Positions 5,153-60,583 of a stretch of DNA of 64,000 nt are shown here, piece after piece (positions within the stretch are counted from its first letter, which is position 1; each line of letters begins with the position of its first letter). Source of the stretch: Escherichia phage vB_EcoM_G2540-3. Under the pieces are notes generated by a model. That model searched no databases, was not told the origin of the DNA, and was given only the letters and a program-made list of their open reading frames with translations. A program made the translations under genes and the position numbers. The stretch lies in sequence record MK327944.1, one strand, 5' to 3'.

Positions 5153-5566
5153 TTATTCCTTAAAGTGAGCTTTCAACATCTGATACAAGGACCATGCCTG
5201 TTCATCATTTTCAATAGTAACTTTCATTACAGGGAATTTAGATTGATCAGTTATCGGTGCAGATTCTTCCTGCTCTTCAGCTGCCTGGTATGGATTTTCA
5301 ACTTCATTAAAGAATTCAGCTTCATTCGATGAAAGCCAAATAAAATCTTCATCCAAAATATCTTTACCAGAAGATAGTACTAAATTTCCAGCAAATGACA
5401 TAATTTTAATAGGACGCCCAAGAGCATCCACATCTAAAATTTTAAAAGGATGCATACCTAAACGGCGTGCATAGATTCCGTTATCAGTATGGTCTTTAAT
5501 AAAATTTTCTTGAGCTTGTTTATTTTTAAACTGATACCATTTATTAACTTCAAATTTAATAGCCAT
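5153..5566 (-). CDS. hypothetical early protein, 137 aa (occupies the T4 goF position by synteny)
   Basis: ORF only; the synteny-based name is a guess. Confidence 0.5.
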
Positions 5567-5781: not shown

Positions 5782-5953
5782 TACAATTTCCTCGTTAATT
5801 GAACATTGGAGCGATGCGTTTCAGAAGAGTAGCAGCACCTTTGGCAAATTTTCCATTTTATTCTCCAAATTATTTTCTATATCAGTAGTTGATATTGATA
5901 TAGTACCATAATCAACTACTGATGTATATAGTTTTATGAAAAAATTTTAAACT

Positions 5954-6489: not shown

Positions 6490-6519
6490 ATTATACTCTG
6501 GTCCCAAGAGTTTGTAAAC
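6490..6519 (-). promoter_or_regulatory. T4-type early promoter
   Basis: Minus strand GTTTAC, 18 nt, TATAAT; upstream of 5954..6445. Confidence 0.6.
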
Positions 6520-7068: not shown

Positions 7069-7569
7069 TTATCTCATTTCAATAAAATCTACGAGTTCAG
7101 CATGCGATTTGCGGAACATTACTTGGTGCCCACCAATGATAACTTCATCTTCAGGAACTTCGTATACAGCGAGATAAAATCCTTTAGAAGATAATTCTTC
7201 CCGCTCTTCTCGTGTGAACCATCTCATCATATCATATTCACTAGCGAAAGCAAAATGATAAAGACCTATAAACCATCCTGGAATATGATATTCTACTCCA
7301 ACATAATCTTTCTTGAACTTAGTATTAATTACTATATTAGCGTTTTTAACTAATAGTTTATCTTCGTGTGGTAAAGGAATTCTTTTATTATTATCGCTAT
7401 GATGCATAAAATTAGGTCTGTCATAACCTACGTGTAATAGCCACTCTTCGCTCCATGAATCTATTATACTCCTGTACGGCGTTATTTGAACACAAAGATT
7501 TCGACGTATTGTTATAGCATCTTCATAATCAAGAATACTAAACGATGATTCAACACGATAAATTTTCAT
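7069..7569 (-). CDS. hypothetical early protein, 166 aa (occupies the T4 motB position by synteny)
   Basis: Start moved to internal ATG at 7569 with RBS GAGGA, so that the early promoter at 7597..7626 lies upstream. Confidence 0.5.
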   Translation of the reverse strand: MKIYRVESSFSILDYEDAITIRRNLCVQITPYRSIIDSWSEEWLLHVGYDRPNFMHHSDNNKRIPLPHEDKLLVKNANIVINTKFKKDYVGVEYHIPGWFIGLYHFAFASEYDMMRWFTREEREELSSKGFYLAVYEVPEDEVIIGGHQVMFRKSHAELVDFIEMR

Positions 7570-7596
7570 TTTATTATCCTCAGTAGCTATGGTGTT

Positions 7597-7626
7597 ATAA
7601 TACCACAACTAACCGAGGAAGTAAAC
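7597..7626 (-). promoter_or_regulatory. T4-type early promoter
   Basis: Minus strand GTTTAC, 18 nt, TATTAT; upstream of 7069..7569. Confidence 0.6.
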
Positions 7627-8817: not shown

Positions 8818-10137
8818 TCATACATAAAATACATCATAACGACCACGGGTAACACCAACATAAAGAAGTTGTTGAGCTAATTCAGCATCTGCATAATGAA
8901 TACAAGGCGTATAAATGAAAGCACGGTCTACAGACATACCCTGAGCTTTATGGAATGTTGATGCAGGAAGTGCTTTCACTTTACTGAACTGTGATTTAGC
9001 ATCCCAAAAATCACTCCACGGAGCTTTTCCGCCTTTGTTCCAATTTTTATAAGTTTCTGCCGTTTTACCTAAAAATAGGTTAAACTTATATAGCTCTTCA
9101 TCAGATGAAATTATTTTAATCTTTTCACGATAATATTCATCATCGCCATAAGTTTCTACTGTTAAATCCCAATGACGAATTAAGTATTCTCCAGGAACAC
9201 CACGAGCTTTAACAAACGTTGATGTATACTCTGCTTCTATAATACGAACTAATTGTCCGTTATTAAAAATAATTTCTGATACAGGCTTTCCATCAATTTT
9301 ATATGTTTTAATTAATGGTTCCTGCATTACAATAATTTCACCGACAATAAAATCTTTATCAGTTTCAAAAATCTTTTTACGAATAATGCTATTTAACTTA
9401 TCAACAGATTTATTCGTAAATGCCATTACGCGATTTTCAAACAAATCATCTAGTGATTTTACGATTGAAAAATAATTTACCATAAAATCGCGTAAAGCGG
9501 TATCACCAATAAATCCACGTACTCCATGCCCGTCAACAATTTTATCATAAATCCACTTACCGTTACGAACGTCAGTAGCTACATCAATAATAGGAGCATT
9601 ACTGCGTTTAACTTCAGTGAGTTCGCACTGATAAAAATCTTTATGCGTAAAGAATGGACTGATATAAGCAGTATTTTCTCCTGGGTCAACAGGTCTAATT
9701 TGCTTATTATCCCCTATTCCAATTATAGTACACCAAGGTGGAATAGTTGAAAGCAGAATTTTAAATAGCTTTCTATCATACATTGACACTTCATCGCAGA
9801 TTAATACTCTGCATTTAGCTAAATCTGGTACTTCCTTCTGTTCAAAAAGAACATTTTCTTCATATGTTACTGGGTTAATTTTAAGAATACTATGAATAGT
9901 ACTTGCTTCTTTCCCTGATAGTTTTGAAAGAATCTTTTTAGCTGCATGAGTAGGAGCTGCTAAAATAATACCAGTTTCACCCGTAGATATTAAAGCTTCA
10001 ATGATGAACTTGGTAAGAGTAGTCTTACCAGTACCAGCAGGTCCATTAATAGTTACATGATGTTTCTTTTCTTTAATAGCCTTCATAACAATGTTAAAGG
10101 CATTTTTCTGGCCTTCGGTCAAATCATCAAATGTCAT
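8818..10137 (-). CDS. dda: Dda SF1B DNA helicase, 439 aa
   Basis: Walker A GPAGTGKTT, Walker B LICDEVSM; 439 aa as in T4 Dda. Confidence 0.9.
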   Translation of the reverse strand: MTFDDLTEGQKNAFNIVMKAIKEKKHHVTINGPAGTGKTTLTKFIIEALISTGETGIILAAPTHAAKKILSKLSGKEASTIHSILKINPVTYEENVLFEQKEVPDLAKCRVLICDEVSMYDRKLFKILLSTIPPWCTIIGIGDNKQIRPVDPGENTAYISPFFTHKDFYQCELTEVKRSNAPIIDVATDVRNGKWIYDKIVDGHGVRGFIGDTALRDFMVNYFSIVKSLDDLFENRVMAFTNKSVDKLNSIIRKKIFETDKDFIVGEIIVMQEPLIKTYKIDGKPVSEIIFNNGQLVRIIEAEYTSTFVKARGVPGEYLIRHWDLTVETYGDDEYYREKIKIISSDEELYKFNLFLGKTAETYKNWNKGGKAPWSDFWDAKSQFSKVKALPASTFHKAQGMSVDRAFIYTPCIHYADAELAQQLLYVGVTRGRYDVFYV

Positions 10138-11223: not shown

Positions 11224-11253
11224 ACTATAACATTTTTACTTCAGCTTGTAAAC
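11224..11253 (-). promoter_or_regulatory. T4-type early promoter
   Basis: Minus strand GTTTAC, 18 nt, TATAGT; upstream of 10447..11193. Confidence 0.6.
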
Positions 11254-11912: not shown

Positions 11913-12544
11913 TCAACTACCTCAATATCATACACTTTAAATGTTCCAAATGAATCATGTAATTTTTCTTTTGAAATAGAAGTTATTTTATACTTTCCAA
12001 TTGGAATCATCCATTCTTGTTCACGCACAATCATCATTAAGTTATCAGTACGTTCTGAATCTAATCCATCAGTATCTTCATATGTATACTTAAACTCAGT
12101 ATTAGGAGAAGAAAGTATAATATCGCTGATATGGTCAGAATAATTAAAAGCTTTATCAGTTTTTAAGCGAAGTACTATTTCAGTGAAATATTCAGCATAA
12201 GAAAAAGAACACGCTGTATGCAAACTAGTAGTAAATGAATCTACTCTGTTCGTTGAAAACACTTCTCCAACTTGTAAATCTTTAATGAGTTCTTTTGTCG
12301 ATTTTGATATACCACGATATAGCTGATAAGGTGATTTAGTTAAATGCTTTTTAATGATTTTATTCAACTGCCGATGAAGAGCTTCATTCTTTTTGGCTTC
12401 CATACATTGCCAAAGAACTGACTGTTCAAAGTCAGTAAATTTTTCACAGACCTTTTTATACATATCATATTGAAAATCAACGCTTTCAGCTTTTATAGAT
12501 AACTGTTCAACATCTGCAAGATTAATAATCATGATAGCCTCCAT
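11909..12544 (-). CDS. modB: ADP-ribosyltransferase ModB, 211 aa
   Basis: R-S-E ART signature: LYRGI, STN, EQEWMIP; RBS GGAGG; early promoter at 12559..12588. Confidence 0.8.
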   Translation of the reverse strand: MEAIMIINLADVEQLSIKAESVDFQYDMYKKVCEKFTDFEQSVLWQCMEAKKNEALHRQLNKIIKKHLTKSPYQLYRGISKSTKELIKDLQVGEVFSTNRVDSFTTSLHTACSFSYAEYFTEIVLRLKTDKAFNYSDHISDIILSSPNTEFKYTYEDTDGLDSERTDNLMMIVREQEWMIPIGKYKITSISKEKLHDSFGTFKVYDIEVVE

Positions 12545-12558
12545 ATACTTCAGAAGCT

Positions 12559-12588
12559 ATCATATCATTGTTAGGAAGGAAAGTAAAC
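12559..12588 (-). promoter_or_regulatory. T4-type early promoter (modB-modA)
   Basis: Minus strand GTTTAC, 18 nt, TATGAT. Confidence 0.6.
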
Positions 12589-12790: not shown

Positions 12791-13273
12791 CTAGCGATAA
12801 AAACCAAAATAACGATTAGCTTCAATAATTTTTCTTTCTTCTTCGGACATTCTCCAGCGCAGTCCAACATCAAAATGAGCCCAGACCATCTTAACAAATG
12901 CATTTATATCTTTAATATCTTCAATAATGAATGTTTTACTTTTAGAAGGTTGACCTGCTAAATTAAGCGCTAATTTAACTTTATCGTCTTCAAACAGGTC
13001 AAAAAGACCATATTCATGGGCTCTTTTATAGCCTTTAATAGTTAAAGCTTCAGAAGAAGAAAAAGGTGAATCAGTATTCTGCAAAATATCTTCAGTATGC
13101 TTTATAATTAGAATAACATTTTCTGGATATTTTCTTTCTTTTATATCTTTAATTAAAATATCCGGATTTTCTGCTAAAGGAATAATTAATGAGCACTTTT
13201 TATCAAGTGTATTTACTGATTTACCTTCTTTAGACATAAATTCTATTGAATAATGTTTTGCTACTTCAATCAT
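12791..13273 (-). CDS. hypothetical protein, 160 aa
   Basis: ORF in the early array (T4 mrh region). Confidence 0.5.
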
Positions 13274-14825: not shown

Positions 14826-14855
14826 ATTATACCATACTCATTTTGGAAAGTAAAC
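14826..14855 (-). promoter_or_regulatory. T4-type early promoter
   Basis: Minus strand GTTTAC, 18 nt, TGGTATAAT. Confidence 0.65.
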
Positions 14856-14860
14856 CGTTT

Positions 14861-14890
14861 AAATGAAAAAAGGACTCCCGAAGGAGTCCT
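14861..14890 (-). terminator. intrinsic terminator after soc
   Basis: Minus RNA GGACUCC-UUCG-GGAGUCC followed by UUUUUUCAUUU. Confidence 0.8.
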
Positions 14891-14897
14891 TGAATTA

Positions 14898-18650: not shown

Positions 18651-19256
18651 TTAAAAATTTGGGTCATCAATAGAAACTTTTACTTTAAACTGTTTTTCTG
18701 ATGGTAATTCATATCCGCATATTACAATTTTGTGATCAATATCAAAATACACAGAAGCAATATGATTAATGATGTTTTCAGTAAAGTCTAAATCAACCTC
18801 AATATCTTTTTGACCACAACCCAAAGGATAAATAATGCGAGTAATTCGATTATCTTTAACAAAGATTCCACCAATATACTCTGTGCTGCGTTTAAAGTCT
18901 ACGCGCCGCCGAAATGAAAAATATTCAGGCTCTTTATGAGCTCGGCTCATAGGACACAACGAATAACTAGAATAAGAGATGTCAAATCCTACACCTTCAA
19001 TATGAACTAAATTGTCATGATTAAACCAATTATAATCGTACGCCAAGTCCATTAGATTATAATATGTAAAAGGCACCGGATTAACATCACTAGTCACAAG
19101 CACGTAATTAGCAACTGCTATAATTTCGTTGTTTTTAACGAATACAAACCGCGATTGATGCGAATGACCTGGACCTGCGTTTTCACGATTAATGATATAA
19201 CACTGGGCACCTTTATATTTGTACGTGTCTTTGCACTTGTGCATTTGATAAAGCAT
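18651..19256 (-). CDS. hypothetical protein, 201 aa (61.2 position)
   Basis: ORF only; identity not verifiable from sequence. Confidence 0.5.
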   Translation of the reverse strand: MLYQMHKCKDTYKYKGAQCYIINRENAGPGHSHQSRFVFVKNNEIIAVANYVLVTSDVNPVPFTYYNLMDLAYDYNWFNHDNLVHIEGVGFDISYSSYSLCPMSRAHKEPEYFSFRRRVDFKRSTEYIGGIFVKDNRITRIIYPLGCGQKDIEVDLDFTENIINHIASVYFDIDHKIVICGYELPSEKQFKVKVSIDDPNF

Positions 19257-19549
19257 TATTCACCTACCACTTCAGCGATGATATTTTTATTATTGAAGTT
19301 TTTATCGCAATACAGAACGTAATTATACTGCATTACACCACCAGACTTAAGCTGTTTTTGCACTTCAGCTTTCATTTCAGGACGATCACGCTCAACGATA
19401 TTCATAATATCTGCTTCAATCTGAGTTTCAACCTCAGTCTGATCTGCAGTCATAGACCATTCGCACAAATCTTTATCATAACCTGCCATAGCAGGCTGAG
19501 CAGCGCAAGAAGCTAAAGCAAAAATTGCAGCAAAAACAAATTTTTTCAT
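19256..19549 (-). CDS. sp: periplasmic protein, 97 aa, likely Spackle (Sp)
   Basis: Signal peptide MKKFVFAAIFALASCAAQPAMA; 97 aa; position between 61 and 41; RBS GGAG; early promoter at 19578..19607. Confidence 0.55.
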   Translation of the reverse strand: MKKFVFAAIFALASCAAQPAMAGYDKDLCEWSMTADQTEVETQIEADIMNIVERDRPEMKAEVQKQLKSGGVMQYNYVLYCDKNFNNKNIIAEVVGE

Positions 19550-19577
19550 GATAATCTCCTCAGTAGTTTATGTTTAT

Positions 19578-19607
19578 ATAGTATCTCAATTTCTAACAAA
19601 AGTAAAC
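19578..19607 (-). promoter_or_regulatory. T4-type early promoter (before the sp-like gene)
   Basis: Minus strand GTTTAC, 18 nt, TACTAT. Confidence 0.6.
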
Positions 19608-19861
19608 TATTTTATTTCCTCAAGTTCGTTAATCAATAAAAGTTCTCTGACGCTAAAAACAAAGAAAAATGTGTTCCCATCAACCAGAGCATGACCGCTA
19701 ATAGAACACCCTCTGCGGAATTTAGAAACTTCACAATCTAGAACTGTAAAGGGTTTTAATCCTATGACTTTAGCTGTGCGTCTATTCAGTTCACAACCAC
19801 TTGCGAATTTTTCCAAATCTTCTTCTGATTTAAACTGATATTCTCTATTAACTAGCATCAT
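19607..19861 (-). CDS. hypothetical protein, 84 aa
   Basis: ORF with RBS GGAG and early promoter at 19893..19922. Confidence 0.5.
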   Translation of the reverse strand: MMLVNREYQFKSEEDLEKFASGCELNRRTAKVIGLKPFTVLDCEVSKFRRGCSISGHALVDGNTFFFVFSVRELLLINELEEIK

Positions 19862-19892
19862 TTTCTTTTCTCCGCGATTAGCTGATAGAATT

Positions 19893-19922
19893 ACTATAAC
19901 ACAACTCTATCAGCTTGTAAAC
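19893..19922 (-). promoter_or_regulatory. T4-type early promoter with -10 inside a 9-bp inverted repeat
   Basis: Minus strand GTTTAC, 18 nt, TATAGT; arms GCTGATAGA and TCTATCAGC. Confidence 0.6.
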
Positions 19923-19924
19923 TA

Positions 19925-20167
19925 CTATTTTACTAGCATCAATAACTGTTTCTCTAACTTGACGATTTTACGAAAGTATCTTTTGCATTGGCGAATCTGT
20001 CGCTTCGTAGGGCGCACAGCAAACTTAATAAATTCCACTCGACCAAATGGAGGACTTTCTTCTGCTGGAATATCTAACACCAATTCCCACGTATCCGCAA
20101 TAAGTGCCTTGAATTGAGTATTTTTCCTGACATTATACGGAGTAGGTTTAAATAAAACAATATGCAT
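19925..20167 (-). CDS. hypothetical protein, about 80 aa
   Basis: Start set at ATG 20167 just after the upstream stop. Confidence 0.45.
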   Translation of the reverse strand: MHIVLFKPTPYNVRKNTQFKALIADTWELVLDIPAEESPPFGRVEFIKFAVRPTKRQIRQCKRYFRKIVKLEKQLLMLVK

Positions 20168-20168
20168 A

Positions 20169-20351
20169 TTATCCTCGGCAATCCACTTCACATACTTTCT
20201 TGTCATCAATGAAAGCTTTAACTAGCGCTTTATTAACTTCAGCATATTGAGTAGTAGCCCATTGAACGTCATCTTTCATCATTGTGATTTCTTTAGTAAA
20301 CATGCTTTCATTCTTAAACCACCCCATAAAAACTACCTTTACCAATTCCAT
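20169..20351 (-). CDS. dmd: Dmd-like antitoxin (discriminator of mRNA degradation), 60 aa
   Basis: 60-aa ORF in the 61.5 position with RBS GAGGAG and its own early promoter. Confidence 0.55.
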   Translation of the reverse strand: MELVKVVFMGWFKNESMFTKEITMMKDDVQWATTQYAEVNKALVKAFIDDKKVCEVDCRG

Positions 20352-20380
20352 AAAAATCTCCTCATTTAACCAACAAGACT

Positions 20381-20410
20381 ACTATACCATAGTCTTGTCA
20401 GCTTGTAAAC
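20381..20410 (-). promoter_or_regulatory. T4-type early promoter (dmd) with -10 inside an 8-bp inverted repeat
   Basis: Minus strand GTTTAC, 18 nt, TATAGT; arms CAAGACTA and TAGTCTTG. Confidence 0.6.
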
Positions 20411-21837
20411 TAAAATTTTAATTCATTCGCCAAAGCATCTAACTGGGCTCGAGTAGATTCATTTCTTTGATAGCGATTCTGCTCAGCTTGTATCTGTTGT
20501 GAACCTGCTACTTCGTTCACTTCAGTTGGAGTAGAATCTTGCTCAATTTCTACCCATTTCTGATTTCCTTTTTGAACACCCATCAAAAACTTATTCCATT
20601 TATTCTTATCACCATATCGTGATTTGATTTGCTTAATTAGTTGTTGTTCAGCAGCTGCTAACTCCTCGGTTTCAATGACCGCAAGCATAAAATCGGCTGT
20701 TGCTGGAAGACCGGCAGATTCTGCAATATCGCTCATGTTAACATCAGAAGAATCCCAAGCTTGTTTACCAACCTGTGCTGCGGTCCAAAGAACAGTTTCG
20801 GTTTCAACAGCCAGAGCACGTAATTCTTCTGCGATAGCTTTAACAGTTGTGTAACTATTTTCTGAATAAACTCTGATGCGGCAAGATTTACAAATACCCA
20901 GATAGTCAACAATAATGATTGTTGGAACAAAATTCTTCTTGAGCTTTAATTCATTTAAAAGCGACCGAAATGTATTAGCGTCTGCTCCACCAGTAGGATA
21001 CTGTTTAACGATTAAACGGCCGAGAGTAGATTTCTCACGCCATTTTTCCATTTTTCCTTTATATTCAGCGTAAGAAATATGCCCATCATCAATGTCATCA
21101 AGAGAAACATCGAGCATATTAGCGTCAATACGTTTAGCACAGACTTCTTCTGCCATTTCCATGGAAATGTAAAGAACATTATGTCCGAGCTGCAAATAAT
21201 CTGCTGCCAATGAACACAGACCTAATGACTTACCAACGTTAACACCAGCCATTAAAACGTTCAGTGTTCCAGTTTCAGCTCCGCCTTTAGTAATTTTATT
21301 TAGAATTTTGAGTCTAAATGGAACCTTACGAGCTTTATTCATATAAGATAGCCAACGTGCTTCATAGTCATCCATCCAATCATGACCAACGTAACTATCA
21401 AATGAAATTGATAATGCTTGACGCATGATGTCAGGAATAGCACCTACATCTGGCATTTTCTTATTTCGTTTTTCCGGAGGAAGCTCAGCATTAGTTTGGA
21501 TTTCAATTATTTTAGACGTAGCATTAAACATCGCCCTTTGCTGAACATATTTTTCTGTTTCTTTTACTAACCAGCTGTGGTCTTCTGGAGAATCGGTTAG
21601 TTTCGAAATAAGTGTTTTTACGCCAGAATATTCCGTTTCAGTAAATGAACTATTTTCTAATGCAACATTTAACGCATTAATAGATGGAACGCTATGATAC
21701 TCATTAACATGAGATTTAATTAATTTGAATGTATTTTTAGCTGGACCACTTTCAAAATATTCTGAATCCATATATGGCCAAACTTTTGAAAAATAAGCTT
21801 GATCAAATATGAGATGAGAAAGAATAATTTCTACCAC
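20410..21837 (-). CDS. 41: replicative DnaB-like helicase gp41, 475 aa
   Basis: Walker A GVNVGKS, 475 aa, position between 61 and uvsX. Confidence 0.9.
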   Translation of the reverse strand: MVEIILSHLIFDQAYFSKVWPYMDSEYFESGPAKNTFKLIKSHVNEYHSVPSINALNVALENSSFTETEYSGVKTLISKLTDSPEDHSWLVKETEKYVQQRAMFNATSKIIEIQTNAELPPEKRNKKMPDVGAIPDIMRQALSISFDSYVGHDWMDDYEARWLSYMNKARKVPFRLKILNKITKGGAETGTLNVLMAGVNVGKSLGLCSLAADYLQLGHNVLYISMEMAEEVCAKRIDANMLDVSLDDIDDGHISYAEYKGKMEKWREKSTLGRLIVKQYPTGGADANTFRSLLNELKLKKNFVPTIIIVDYLGICKSCRIRVYSENSYTTVKAIAEELRALAVETETVLWTAAQVGKQAWDSSDVNMSDIAESAGLPATADFMLAVIETEELAAAEQQLIKQIKSRYGDKNKWNKFLMGVQKGNQKWVEIEQDSTPTEVNEVAGSQQIQAEQNRYQRNESTRAQLDALANELKF

Positions 21838-21846
21838 ACTTACTCC

Positions 21847-22203
21847 TTAAAAGAATTTAAATTTTTTCTTTGACCTTTTATTAAATGCATCTTGTAGTTG
21901 CATTGTAATACATTTTTCTACATGAGGAGCTAACTCAGCTTTTCTTTCTTGGTCAAGAACAGCAAAGTCCATTACGACTTTTCCATCAACCCAATCTAAT
22001 TTTGTCACATACACAATGTGTGTAGAACCATCTTCTAGTTTAATGACAATCTCCTGGATAACATTTTCCATGGCAGATTTAATTATCTTAAGAGATTCAT
22101 TAAAAAGACGTTCTTTTCTTTCTTCTTCCCCCTCCGAAGAGGGGGATTCGTCGATAATTTCTAGATCTAAATCATCTTTATTCATTAAATTCTTCCATAT
22201 CAC
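21847..22203 (-). CDS. gp40-like protein, 118 aa
   Basis: Position between 41 and uvsX; acidic N-terminal region. Confidence 0.45.
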   Translation of the reverse strand: MIWKNLMNKDDLDLEIIDESPSSEGEEERKERLFNESLKIIKSAMENVIQEIVIKLEDGSTHIVYVTKLDWVDGKVVMDFAVLDQERKAELAPHVEKCITMQLQDAFNKRSKKKFKFF

Positions 22204-31322: not shown

Positions 31323-31345
31323 ATAGAGGGCCGAAGCCCTCTATT
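31323..31345 (-). other. intercistronic UUCG hairpin (45 to 44)
   Basis: Minus RNA AUAGAGGGC-UUCG-GCCCUCUAU between the gene 45 stop and the gene 44 start. Confidence 0.55.
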
Positions 31346-37482: not shown

Positions 37483-37505
37483 TATATCAAACTCCGTATA
37501 AAGCT

Positions 37506-37523
37506 AAAGGGCCGAAGCCCTTT
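37506..37523 (-). other. UUCG hairpin after alpha-gt
   Basis: Minus RNA AAAGGGC-UUCG-GCCCUUU overlapping the alpha-gt stop. Confidence 0.55.
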
Positions 37524-38724
37524 ATTTTGTAATAATGTCAAACTGTTCTTTAAAGCAGAAGCTTGAATCTTGATGCTGATACAAAAATTCATAAGCTTTT
37601 TCGCGTTCGCGGTCATAAAGAGTTCGGTCAGATGACAGTTCTTTAATACGTTCAAATGTTGATTCCATGTCATTTTCATCAAACCAAATGATACCGCTAT
37701 CATGCGAGGTCAAAGGAGTATTATCAACACGGAATTTTAAATTTTCGCCAGTAGATTTCCAAAATACCGGAATTGTTCCACATGCACCAAGCTCGAGATG
37801 AGTATATTCTAAAGAGCGCTGTAGATATTTTTTATCCAACTTACTCAACTGATAACCAAAACCGGATTTACTCATACGTTCAAGCATTTCGCTATTTACA
37901 TAACGGTCAAGAATTTGCGTTGGCAAATTAGGAGCAATTTTAATTTGGTCTACTTGATGAAGACGATAATACTCGTATGGAATTCCTTTTTCTTTAATAG
38001 GAATGAACGCTGGAGAACGTTCCAGACCTTCCATAATAGTACTTAGTCCTGCAGGTTTAAGATGTTTTTCATGAAAATCAAACATCTGATAAAAACCTTT
38101 CCATGTAGTCGTACGACCAATCCAACGGTTGATATTCATGTTAATTTCAGAAACATCTTTCCAGTAGGTTGATCGAACCTTCGCAATATCCATAGGAGGC
38201 TGAAAGTTATATACTGTCGGCGCTTCTTCAATATCATCAAACAGAGAAACTGTTTCCGGATACCATTCTTTCATCAGAACTTTATTAAAATCGCCATTAT
38301 CAGAATGGCTAAAAATAACATCAGCTCGACGAACAGTTTCTTCTAATCCCAAATTTCGACGCAAAGAAAGAGAAGAATGGTCATGCTGATAAACTACAAC
38401 ACGAACAGAAGGTTTAATGTTATCAATAATTTTTTTATAGTTATTAATAGTGTCTTCTTCAACCCAAGTAGCAGGAACTGAATTGATAATTAGAATATCA
38501 CAATCATTTACCAGCTTAAGTGTTTTATCGTATTCTTTTGCCAATAAAACCGGAATTGAAAATGATTTATAATCATGCGCGCAATTACGAGTAAATGATT
38601 TATCTTTAGCATAAACCAAAGTCACTTCATGACCATTTTTAATAAACCAATCACGTTGCTCGAGTGAGAATTTAGTTACACCACAACCTTCAAGACCTCG
38701 AGCCATAAAAATACATACTTTCAT
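37522..38724 (-). CDS. a-gt: DNA alpha-glucosyltransferase, 400 aa
   Basis: 400 aa; N-terminus MKVCIFMARGLEGCGVTKFSLEQRDWFIKNGHEV is alpha-gt-like. Confidence 0.85.
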   Translation of the reverse strand: MKVCIFMARGLEGCGVTKFSLEQRDWFIKNGHEVTLVYAKDKSFTRNCAHDYKSFSIPVLLAKEYDKTLKLVNDCDILIINSVPATWVEEDTINNYKKIIDNIKPSVRVVVYQHDHSSLSLRRNLGLEETVRRADVIFSHSDNGDFNKVLMKEWYPETVSLFDDIEEAPTVYNFQPPMDIAKVRSTYWKDVSEINMNINRWIGRTTTWKGFYQMFDFHEKHLKPAGLSTIMEGLERSPAFIPIKEKGIPYEYYRLHQVDQIKIAPNLPTQILDRYVNSEMLERMSKSGFGYQLSKLDKKYLQRSLEYTHLELGACGTIPVFWKSTGENLKFRVDNTPLTSHDSGIIWFDENDMESTFERIKELSSDRTLYDREREKAYEFLYQHQDSSFCFKEQFDIITK

Positions 38725-38774: not shown

Positions 38775-38794
38775 ATAGGAGCCGAAGCTCCTAT
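38775..38794 (-). other. UUCG hairpin before the alpha-gt middle promoter
   Basis: Minus RNA AUAGGAGC-UUCG-GCUCCUAU. Confidence 0.5.
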
Positions 38795-40224: not shown

Positions 40225-40296
40225 CTCTTAGCTCAATTCATAGATCTATTATATCATAATATTTGAAGATCTATCTTAAAGCACAGAGGATATCAG

Positions 40297-52956: not shown

Positions 52957-52984
52957 ATAAAAAAAAGGGAGCCCGAAGGCTCCC
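52957..52984 (-). terminator. intrinsic terminator after 52987..53997
   Basis: Minus RNA GGGAGCC-UUCG-GGCUCCC followed by UUUUUUUUAUUU. Confidence 0.8.
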
Positions 52985-52986
52985 TA

Positions 52987-55401: not shown

Positions 55402-55536
55402 AATTACATACTCCTTTGAATAATATCAATAATGTTGTTCACCAGATTATAAGTAAACATTGGGTAATTATATTGAATCATCACATACACAACAAACAAA
55501 ACTTTCATTCTCTTCTCCTTGACCGTTGACAAGATT

Positions 55537-55566
55537 ACTATACCATAACCTTGTCAACTTGTAAAC
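55537..55566 (-). promoter_or_regulatory. T4-type early promoter with -10 inside a 9-bp inverted repeat
   Basis: Minus strand GTTTAC, 18 nt, TATAGT; arms GTTGACAAG and CTTGTCAAC. Confidence 0.6.
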
Positions 55567-60526: not shown

Positions 60527-60553
60527 GTTATTCTCCTCTTAACTGATAGAAAA

Positions 60554-60583
60554 ATTATACCACAGTCAAGAGGAAAAGTAAAC
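60554..60583 (-). promoter_or_regulatory. T4-type early promoter (regB)
   Basis: Minus strand GTTTAC, 18 nt, TGGTATAAT. Confidence 0.65.

Follow-up and report, generated by a model that had tools for sequence, protein, structure and literature searches.

Genes and promoters of the locus

The window analysed here is the whole stretch of 64,000 nucleotides taken from Escherichia phage vB_EcoM_G2540-3 (MK327944.1). It belongs to a Tequatrovirus; over the tested stretch vB_EcoM-G28 is 99.6% identical to it and T4 about 96%. The genes of the window are carried by the minus strand, and a uniformly negative GC skew agrees with this. Three early promoters, here called S1, S2 and S3, all read GTTTAC-N18-TATAGT on the minus strand, with a TGn motif and A/T-rich sequence upstream. 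S1 lies between 61.4 (tifA) and a gene of 84 codons, S2 between gene 41 and dmd, and S3 within the mobD.2-mobD.3 region. The genes driven and the promoter elements are the following:

19925..20351, minus strand: dmd-tifA operon, with dmd at 20169-20351 and tifA/61.4 at 19925-20182 (PF17587 Dmd, PF23945)
19607..19861, minus strand: 84-aa gene driven by S1 (phrog_2980, E 3e-20)
55404..55508, minus strand: 34-aa gene driven by S3, of the T4 Y05J / mobD.2a type (phrog_3515)
19880..19922, minus strand: S1 composite; -35 at 19917-19922, -10 TATAGT at 19893-19898; 5' arm 19901-19915 (perfect 19906-19915), 3' arm 19880-19894 (perfect 19880-19889); predicted start ~19886, within the 3' arm
20368..20410, minus strand: S2 composite; -35 at 20405-20410, overlapping the gene 41 stop codon, -10 at 20381-20386; 5' arm 20389-20403 (perfect 20390-20398), 3' arm 20368-20382 (perfect 20373-20381); predicted start ~20374
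55524..55566, minus strand: S3 composite; -35 at 55561-55566, -10 at 55537-55542; 5' arm 55545-55558 (perfect 55550-55558), 3' arm 55525-55538 (perfect 55525-55533); predicted start ~55530

Read along the minus strand, S1 is GTTTAC (19922-19917) a AGCTGATAGA gttgtgtTATAGTaat TCTATCAGCT, S2 is GTTTAC (20410-20405) aagctg ACAAGACTA tggTATAG TAGTCTTGT, and S3 is GTTTAC (55566-55561) aa GTTGACAAG gttatggTATAGTaat CTTGTCAAC.

S2 is the recognised early promoter of dmd-tifA (PMC9391042) and drives dmd and tifA/61.4, both of which are anti-toxin genes. The 84-aa gene behind S1 is short and paralogous to the N-terminal portion of GoF (comC-alpha), with 31% identity (E 3e-8) to the window's own goF at 5153-5566. 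A preliminary description of these promoters had characterised the genes driven as small anti-host candidates, the Dmd-like gene included. This is right in part: the genes behind S2 are the true dmd and tifA/61.4, the gene behind S1 is the GoF-like paralog, and the one behind S3 encodes a 34-aa peptide.

Inverted repeats around the -10 element

In each of the three promoters, the -10 element is flanked by a perfect inverted repeat, with arms of 10 bp at S1, 9 bp at S2 and 9 bp at S3. The 5' arm begins 1-6 nt past the -35 element and the 3' arm begins inside or right after the -10 element, which leaves Watson-Crick loops of 16, 8 and 16 nt. The preliminary description had placed inverted repeats of 8-9 bp around the -10 element at three early promoters, with coordinates that were right to within 1-2 nt; the repeats are perfect, as it had stated, and slightly longer. 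The sense RNA folds with -18.0 kcal/mol at S1 (z -4.3), -18.9 kcal/mol at S2 (z -5.2) and -18.3 kcal/mol at S3 (z -5.8). The spacing between the stop codon upstream and the -35 element is -1 to +2 nt at S1-S3 and -1 to +6 nt across the hairpin promoters, and the SD starts 4-8 nt beyond the 3' arm at S1-S3.

Do such repeats occur more often than expected by chance? The measure was the length of the longest perfect stem whose 5' arm lies between the -35 and -10 elements and whose 3' arm lies from the -10 element onward. It was applied to the 14 GTTTAC-N18-TAnnnT promoters within the window, with shuffles of the spacer and downstream sequence and random genomic positions as null models. Stems of at least 9 bp are present at 3 of the 14 promoters, as against 0.36% of the shuffles and 1.3% of the random genomic positions; the corresponding binomial P values are 1.7e-5 and 6.8e-4, so that the repeats described earlier do exceed the controls.

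Have the three sites arisen independently of each other? All of them have GTTTACAAGYTGA in common, as well as AAGYTGA after the -35 element, and S2 and S3 share a CAAG...CTTG core. Because of this core and of the presence of GTTTACAAGYTGA in all three, S1, S2 and S3 are probably paralogous, and hence not fully independent.

Pairing in natural variants

When G.U pairs are allowed, the stems lengthen to 15 bp at S1, 15 bp at S2 and 14 bp at S3. They do so in a single register, in which positions 8-22 pair with positions 29-43, counting from the G of GTTTAC. Natural variants of the three sites were gathered from T4, IMG/VR, metagenomes and public assemblies. Protein-anchored searches of IMG/VR and pattern scans of IMG/VR and metagenomes yielded few T4-type variants, and the hits were mostly unrelated promoters.

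In the alignment of 15 distinct variants, 224 of the 225 pair cells are paired. This count comes from a small set of closely related variants; the cells do not represent independent events, and it was from these very sequences that the structure had been derived. Seven of the 15 pairs have changed on both sides and six have changed on one side, each of the six via G.U. When the 3' partner is slid by 1-3 columns as a control, pairing falls to 21-66%. The proposal that the arms differ in sequence and keep their geometry under selection for pairing is upheld by these figures. The comparison with orthologous promoters, which had been put forward as a check, leads in the same direction: substitutions at S2 and S3 in relatives preserve RNA pairing, and the one change to a non-pairing combination, the A.G in the window's own S3, affects the terminal pair and is the sole unpaired cell.

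The natural changes at S2 are U.G to C-G, G.U to A-U, G.U to G-C (in T4) and A-U to G.U. In most relatives, an A-U pair of S3 has become G.U, which breaks the perfect DNA palindrome in these phages, and a G-C pair of S3 has become G.U in one. S1 is unchanged in 10 relatives except for a loop substitution of TATAGT to TATAAT; like the invariant element at 5923 described below, it is uninformative on pairing.

Is the pairing maintained in DNA or in RNA? Among the non-Watson-Crick stem cells there are 41 G.T and 0 A.C on the sense strand. An RNA read from the coding strand predicts a strand bias of this kind, whereas a duplex-DNA site or a cruciform formed by both strands does not. The bias suggests the sense strand as the target of selection, and hence points to a role at the level of RNA. 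G.T is the best-tolerated mismatch in single-stranded DNA hairpins also. At most sites the antisense RNA, which is without the G.U extensions, folds less stably than the sense RNA by 5-10 kcal/mol, and hairpins calculated with DNA parameters reach only -7 to -9 kcal/mol.

Further promoters with embedded hairpins

The preliminary description had spoken of at least three such promoters. This number is too low, as additional members are found in the window at 5923-5881, 6519, 7626 and 60583:

5881..5923, minus strand: 13-bp perfect arms (5911-5923 / 5881-5893), with TGGTACTAT in a 17-nt loop
6483..6519, minus strand: promoter at 6519, with a weaker stem, GGACCA/TGGTCC (8 bp with G.U), around TATAAT
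7577..7626, minus strand: promoter at 7626, with a hairpin around the -10 element whose 3' arm extends to the SD (GAGGA)
60531..60583, minus strand: regB promoter, with a 15-bp stem (two G.U pairs) around the -10 element and the SD inside the 3' arm

A reverse scan of the window, covering all inverted repeats of short range, found the hairpin at 5923, which lies between motB and cef. Its 5' arm stands right behind a degenerate -35 element (ATATAC), and the whole element is identical in T4 and nine relatives. The stems at 60583 and 7626 reach 15-17 bp, G.U pairs included. For the regB promoter, the sense hairpin has -21.4 kcal/mol (z -5.6) and the antisense hairpin -12.2 kcal/mol; for the promoter at 7626, the values are -23.7 kcal/mol (z -7.3) and -13.7 kcal/mol. 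In terms of predicted structure, the hairpins would form two classes, one in which the RBS is left free (S1-S3 and 5923) and one in which it is covered (regB and 7626).

Some other arrangements were seen in the same window. At 12531-12563, the region of the -10 hexamer of the promoter at 12588 pairs with the SD/AUG region of the downstream gene through a repeat of 8 bp, ATGATAGC/GCTATCAT. On the minus strand at 40240-40274, a hairpin, ATAGATCT...AGATCTAT, has TATAAT at the boundary of loop and arm, just 5' of the start of gene 55. The sites at 9746 and 40274 were considered as members and left uncounted: they have TATAAT in the loop, but a credible -35 element or MotA-box spacing is absent. 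Directly 3' of the 5923 hairpin, at 5821-5856 on the minus strand, a strong SD precedes a mini-ORF of 11 codons (MENLPKVLLLF), which is located 40 nt upstream of cef. T4 has a mini-ORF of the same length, MENSLKVLILF, which is unannotated in the T4 record.

The assembled T4 genome was scanned with a strict early-promoter pattern, with an SD and an ATG required downstream, and the region from just after the -35 element through the ATG was folded. Nine of the 18 strict early promoters fold at z <= -3.9. The hairpin encloses the -10 element in eight of these nine, while the promoter at 13186 pairs its -10 element with the SD/AUG region instead. The ipIII/ipII promoter (65799) and the S3 ortholog (57990) have perfect 14-bp repeats with 8-nt Watson-Crick loops; these two and the 5923 element of the window are without G.U pairs and are thus compatible with DNA or RNA alike. 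The folding promoters also include those at 20612 (the S2 ortholog), 129918 and 133331. The SD is inside the 3' arm at the promoters of regB (62797), alc (136336) and alt.-3 (123093). RB69, a phage of a different genus, has the same pattern: the arms at 7429 match perfectly over 13 bp, and those at 19006 are GGACTA/TAGTCC. There too the SD can be inside the 3' arm (7429 and ORF040c).

Promoters of T4 and RB69 with unrelated arms fold with z down to -7. The arms at T4 65799, 129918 and 133331 and at RB69 7429 are unrelated, in keeping with the earlier statement that there is no shared site. The T4 GenBank records are without promoter and terminator features, a literature search for mapping data on T4 transcript ends found none, and no family in Rfam covers the promoter hairpins.

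The promoter of the dmd operon can be followed into other genera. In Mosigvirus the repeat is perfect over 14 bp and its arms are different. The published PeSL (promoter-early stem-loop) of Krischvirus Phi1, GGGGGT/ACCCCC, surrounds the -10 element; the PeSLs of phi1/RB49 were described by Arbiol et al. (2010) as early promoters combined with stem-loops (PMC2839356). In Gaprivervirus SP18, a canonical terminator stands immediately 5' of the conserved -10 element and RBS, and GTTTAC and the 5' arm are missing. In Dhakavirus, GTTTAC follows behind an upstream terminator and the stem is reduced to TCTCC/GGAGA.

Start sites, terminators and ribosome-binding sites

Which transcripts would carry the hairpin? 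With the transcription start predicted at the standard 7 nt after the -10 element, it falls inside the 3' arm at S1-S3, so that the hairpin would be carried by read-through transcripts only.

The hairpins of S1-S3 were considered as canonical intrinsic terminators, and this was rejected: a terminator scan of 19000-21000 returned 0 sites and there is no U-tract behind the S1-S3 stems, whose tails are AAUCGCGG, AAAUGAGG and GGUCAAGG. Masking of the RBS was likewise rejected for S1-S3. The predicted accessibility of the SD/AUG in read-through RNA and in the promoter's own RNA is 0.77 and 0.68 at S1, 0.35 and 0.16 at S2, and 0.58 and 0.39 at S3; it is thus no lower in the read-through RNA. At regB, the predicted probability that the SD/AUG is unpaired is 0.21 in the read-through RNA versus 0.56 in the promoter's own RNA.

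Six GC-rich hairpins with a UUCG tetraloop are present on the minus strand of the window, at 52966-52985, 38775-38794, 37505-37524, 31323-31344, 22127-22146 and 14870-14891. They are of the classical T4 terminator or stabiliser type, distinct from the promoter hairpins, and at least one of them (14891-14870) is followed by a T-run.

No hairpin is embedded in the promoter at 14855, which is preceded by a UUCG terminator of its own. At the hairpin promoters, the short spacing between the stop codon of the preceding gene and the -35 element leaves no space for a further 3' structure. The two arrangements, a hairpin within the promoter and a distinct terminator upstream of it, may be mutually exclusive, a relation that is only suggestive since it is drawn from single examples (14855 and SP18) and since three hairpin-free promoters also abut stop codons.

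Gene turnover next to the promoters

S1 and S3 are located at breakpoints in gene content. The cassette of S1 and the 84-aa gene is missing from T4 and is found in about 70 of 421 related genomes (about one in six). Its right junction is at the -35 element of the sp promoter, and its left junction is inside the 3' end of 61.4. Directly downstream of S3 (55404-55566; loci L090-L099), relatives have either a 34- or 35-aa Y05J gene, or nothing, or a set of genes encoding a 33-aa protein, a 61-aa DUF7438 protein and an 88-aa Phage_tudor protein; gene turnover has a local hot spot just 3' of S3. Gene content varies after the dmd-tifA operon too. The elements are likely break-and-join points for small genes of accessory and anti-defence kind (dmd, tifA and the GoF-like gene, for example).

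An extra cassette with a 60-aa gene is present in some relatives (L111, L114, L116 and L118, at ~515-580). Its promoter reads GTTTAC TTTTGTTTT ... AAAACAAA; the loop and RBS are those of the ORF040c promoter of RB69, while the arms are different yet complementary. It illustrates that arms have been replaced and the geometry retained.

Interpretation of the composite elements

What do these hairpins do? It is rather likely that S1-S3 are composites of the PeSL type, in which a T4 early promoter is superimposed on a hairpin that works as RNA and punctuates the upstream message. In these elements, the upstream stop codon is placed at the -35 element, the 5' arm fills the spacer, the -10 element sits in or near the loop, and the 3' arm runs across the predicted start. 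Read-through transcripts from the upstream gene would hold both arms and could fold into a hairpin of 14-15 bp with about -18 to -22 kcal/mol; those initiated at the promoter would begin within the 3' arm and form no hairpin. Most likely, the hairpin would punctuate the message of the upstream gene, whether through protection of the 3' end or through attenuation of read-through. The promoter would then restart transcription, and its overlap with the hairpin would economise on intergenic gaps of 55-60 nt. The same conserved cassette ends would mark the spots at which small genes are gained and lost. A single stretch of 43 nt in this highly compact genome would thereby contain two signals, one for the end of one message and one for the start of the next.

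A wider role may be entertained tentatively, namely that the promoter within a hairpin is a general T-even device that labels RNAs by their start point. With the hairpin in read-through transcripts only, immediate-early (promoter-proximal) copies of a gene's message and its read-through copies (delayed-early or middle) could differ in fate. If this were true, the fates concerned would be decay, access of RegB or RNase E, or translational coupling, and about half of the early promoters would be involved, without classical termination.

The association with gene turnover allows a different emphasis, in which the conserved cassette end serves homologous or microhomology recombination that shuffles small genes, and the hairpin is a signal for it or incidental. 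This role has been proposed for PeSLs (PMC2839356, PMC4122927), and T4 is known to recombine at microhomologies of 6-10 bp around dmd-tifA (PMC9391042). The distribution of the S1 cassette among about 70 of 421 relatives, its right junction at the -35 element of the sp promoter and the shifts in gene content directly after S3 and after dmd-tifA all agree with it. As an account of the elements themselves it is nevertheless doubtful. The left junction of the S1 cassette is in the 3' end of 61.4 and not at a promoter, S2 and the 5923 element are flanked by conserved genes, and the arms, which are the least conserved part between copies, are kept paired. Homology needs no pairing and predicts no bias towards G.U alone. 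Recombination at these sites is compatible with an RNA role of the hairpin, and the two are not exclusive. A translational gate, in which the read-through hairpin blocks downstream translation and only promoter-initiated RNA is translated, has a precedent in T4 late promoters (PMC3014915). The required geometry, with the SD in the 3' arm, occurs at regB (60583), at 7626, at T4 136336 and 123093 and at RB69 7429 and ORF040c, and at regB the SD/AUG is predicted to be masked in the read-through RNA only. For S1-S3 a gate is improbable, as their 3' arm stops 4-8 nt short of the SD and the predicted SD/AUG accessibility is no lower in the read-through RNA.

Could the repeats act in DNA? The preliminary description had suggested an operator for a dimeric factor or a cruciform, either of which might modulate promoter activity. 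The repeats are perfect palindromes in duplex DNA centred on the -10 element, with 14 perfect bp and 8-nt Watson-Crick loops at T4 65799 and 57990, S1-S3 share AAGYTGA after the -35 element, and the shut-off of early promoters is incompletely understood (PMC3014915). However, arm sequences across the class are unrelated and offer no common site or half-site, the promoter at 11253 has GTTTACAAGCTGA too but no repeat, and no candidate DNA-binding factor was identified. Substitutions in relatives disrupt the DNA symmetry and retain G.U, with 41 G.T and no A.C cells, a strand bias that is unexpected for a cruciform as well. Watson-Crick arms of 9-10 bp with spacers of 8-16 nt are poor substrates for cruciform extrusion; the loops of 16, 8 and 16 nt at S1-S3 are unfavourable in this respect, and the DNA hairpins do not go beyond -7 to -9 kcal/mol. 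On these grounds neither suggestion is supported and both are highly improbable, although the sequence speaks less clearly against a cruciform at T4 65799 and 57990, with their 14-bp arms and 8-nt spacers. It is harder still to believe that the repeats have no function and are due to chance or to promoter duplication. S1-S3 look paralogous, and the three cases may thus stem from one or two origins, but both the shuffled and the genomic nulls are exceeded, many T4 and RB69 promoters with unrelated arms fold with z down to -7, and there are compensatory changes between the paralogs and polymorphisms that preserve pairing.

If S1-S3 are indeed promoters superimposed on RNA hairpins, a simple rule would follow for the annotation of T4-like genomes: a palindrome around a -10 element would be recorded as a promoter/stem-loop cassette and not as an operator.

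Comparison with known systems

PeSLs have been divided into five subclasses by the position of the stem-loop, which is most commonly between the -35 and -10 elements or over the -10 element (PMC2839356). The same paper noted G-T pairs and found terminator-like activity for the one GC-rich phi1 stem-loop that it tested in a reporter (PMC2839356). PeSLs were extended to T4/PST and nt-1/KVP40 by Comeau et al. (2014; PMC4122927), and both papers proposed that PeSLs mediate the shuffling of genes (PMC2839356, PMC4122927). A 5-bp mini-hairpin, CCACA-agga-TGTGG, lies wholly within the spacer of the promoter at 2447 (and of T4 50973) and corresponds to the subclass between -35 and -10.

Like PeSLs, S1-S3 combine an AT-rich upstream region and, judging by sequence, a strong early (sigma-70-dependent) promoter with a stem-loop, followed by a small gene's SD and start codon. 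The stem-loop is stable (-18 to -19 kcal/mol, z -4.3 to -5.8) and covaries, the element is intergenic, with a stop codon 5' and an SD and start codon 3', and small ORFs have been gained, lost or replaced next to it (the S1 cassette, after S3 and after dmd-tifA). The position of the stem-loop, the G-T pairs and the nearness to indels of small ORFs are as in phi1/RB49, and the Phi1 element upstream of the dmd operon has the same geometry. The differences concern the parts: the promoter here is of the T4 type, GTTTAC and not TTGACA, and the stems are AU-rich, without the GGGG/CCCC motif and without a U-tract. Furthermore, the stem-loops of T4/PST were drawn just upstream of the promoter (PMC4122927), whereas those described here are around the -10 element. 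In the account that the PeSL paper gives after Repoila et al. (1994), AT-rich analogues occur at T-even internal-protein loci (PMC2839356). As far as that account goes, S1-S3 resemble these analogues in their T4 early promoters, weaker AT-rich stem-loops and highly variable loci, but they are outside the internal-protein loci.

In the T4 genes e, soc, 49 and I-TevI, a late promoter is inside a hairpin (PMC3014915). There as here, the promoter is within the 5' half of the hairpin, so that only transcripts started upstream can fold. These late-promoter hairpins sequester the SD/AUG, whereas S1-S3 have early promoters and a free RBS. Pairing of the SD/AUG in the long transcript only is not predicted at S1-S3 and is predicted for the regB promoter (60583); the regB and 7626 promoters resemble the e/soc/49 layout, but with early promoters. 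Like the T4 terminators and the UUCG hairpins, the promoter hairpins follow directly on the stop codon that closes a cistron. Unlike the UUCG terminators, they are without a GC-rich stem, a UUCG loop and a T-run, and the G+C-rich stem followed by a U-run of an intrinsic terminator is absent. The conserved palindromic half-site of a dimeric operator is also absent, as the arms differ and covary.

The three sites belong to the already published PeSL type and not to a new regulatory class, because they agree with it in every sequence-level feature tested. What they add to the PeSL literature is modest: a strand-specific G.U pattern that points to a role at the RNA level, and the division into hairpins that would leave the RBS free and hairpins that would cover it. 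The G.U signature on the sense strand only would be the first comparative evidence that such elements act as RNA.
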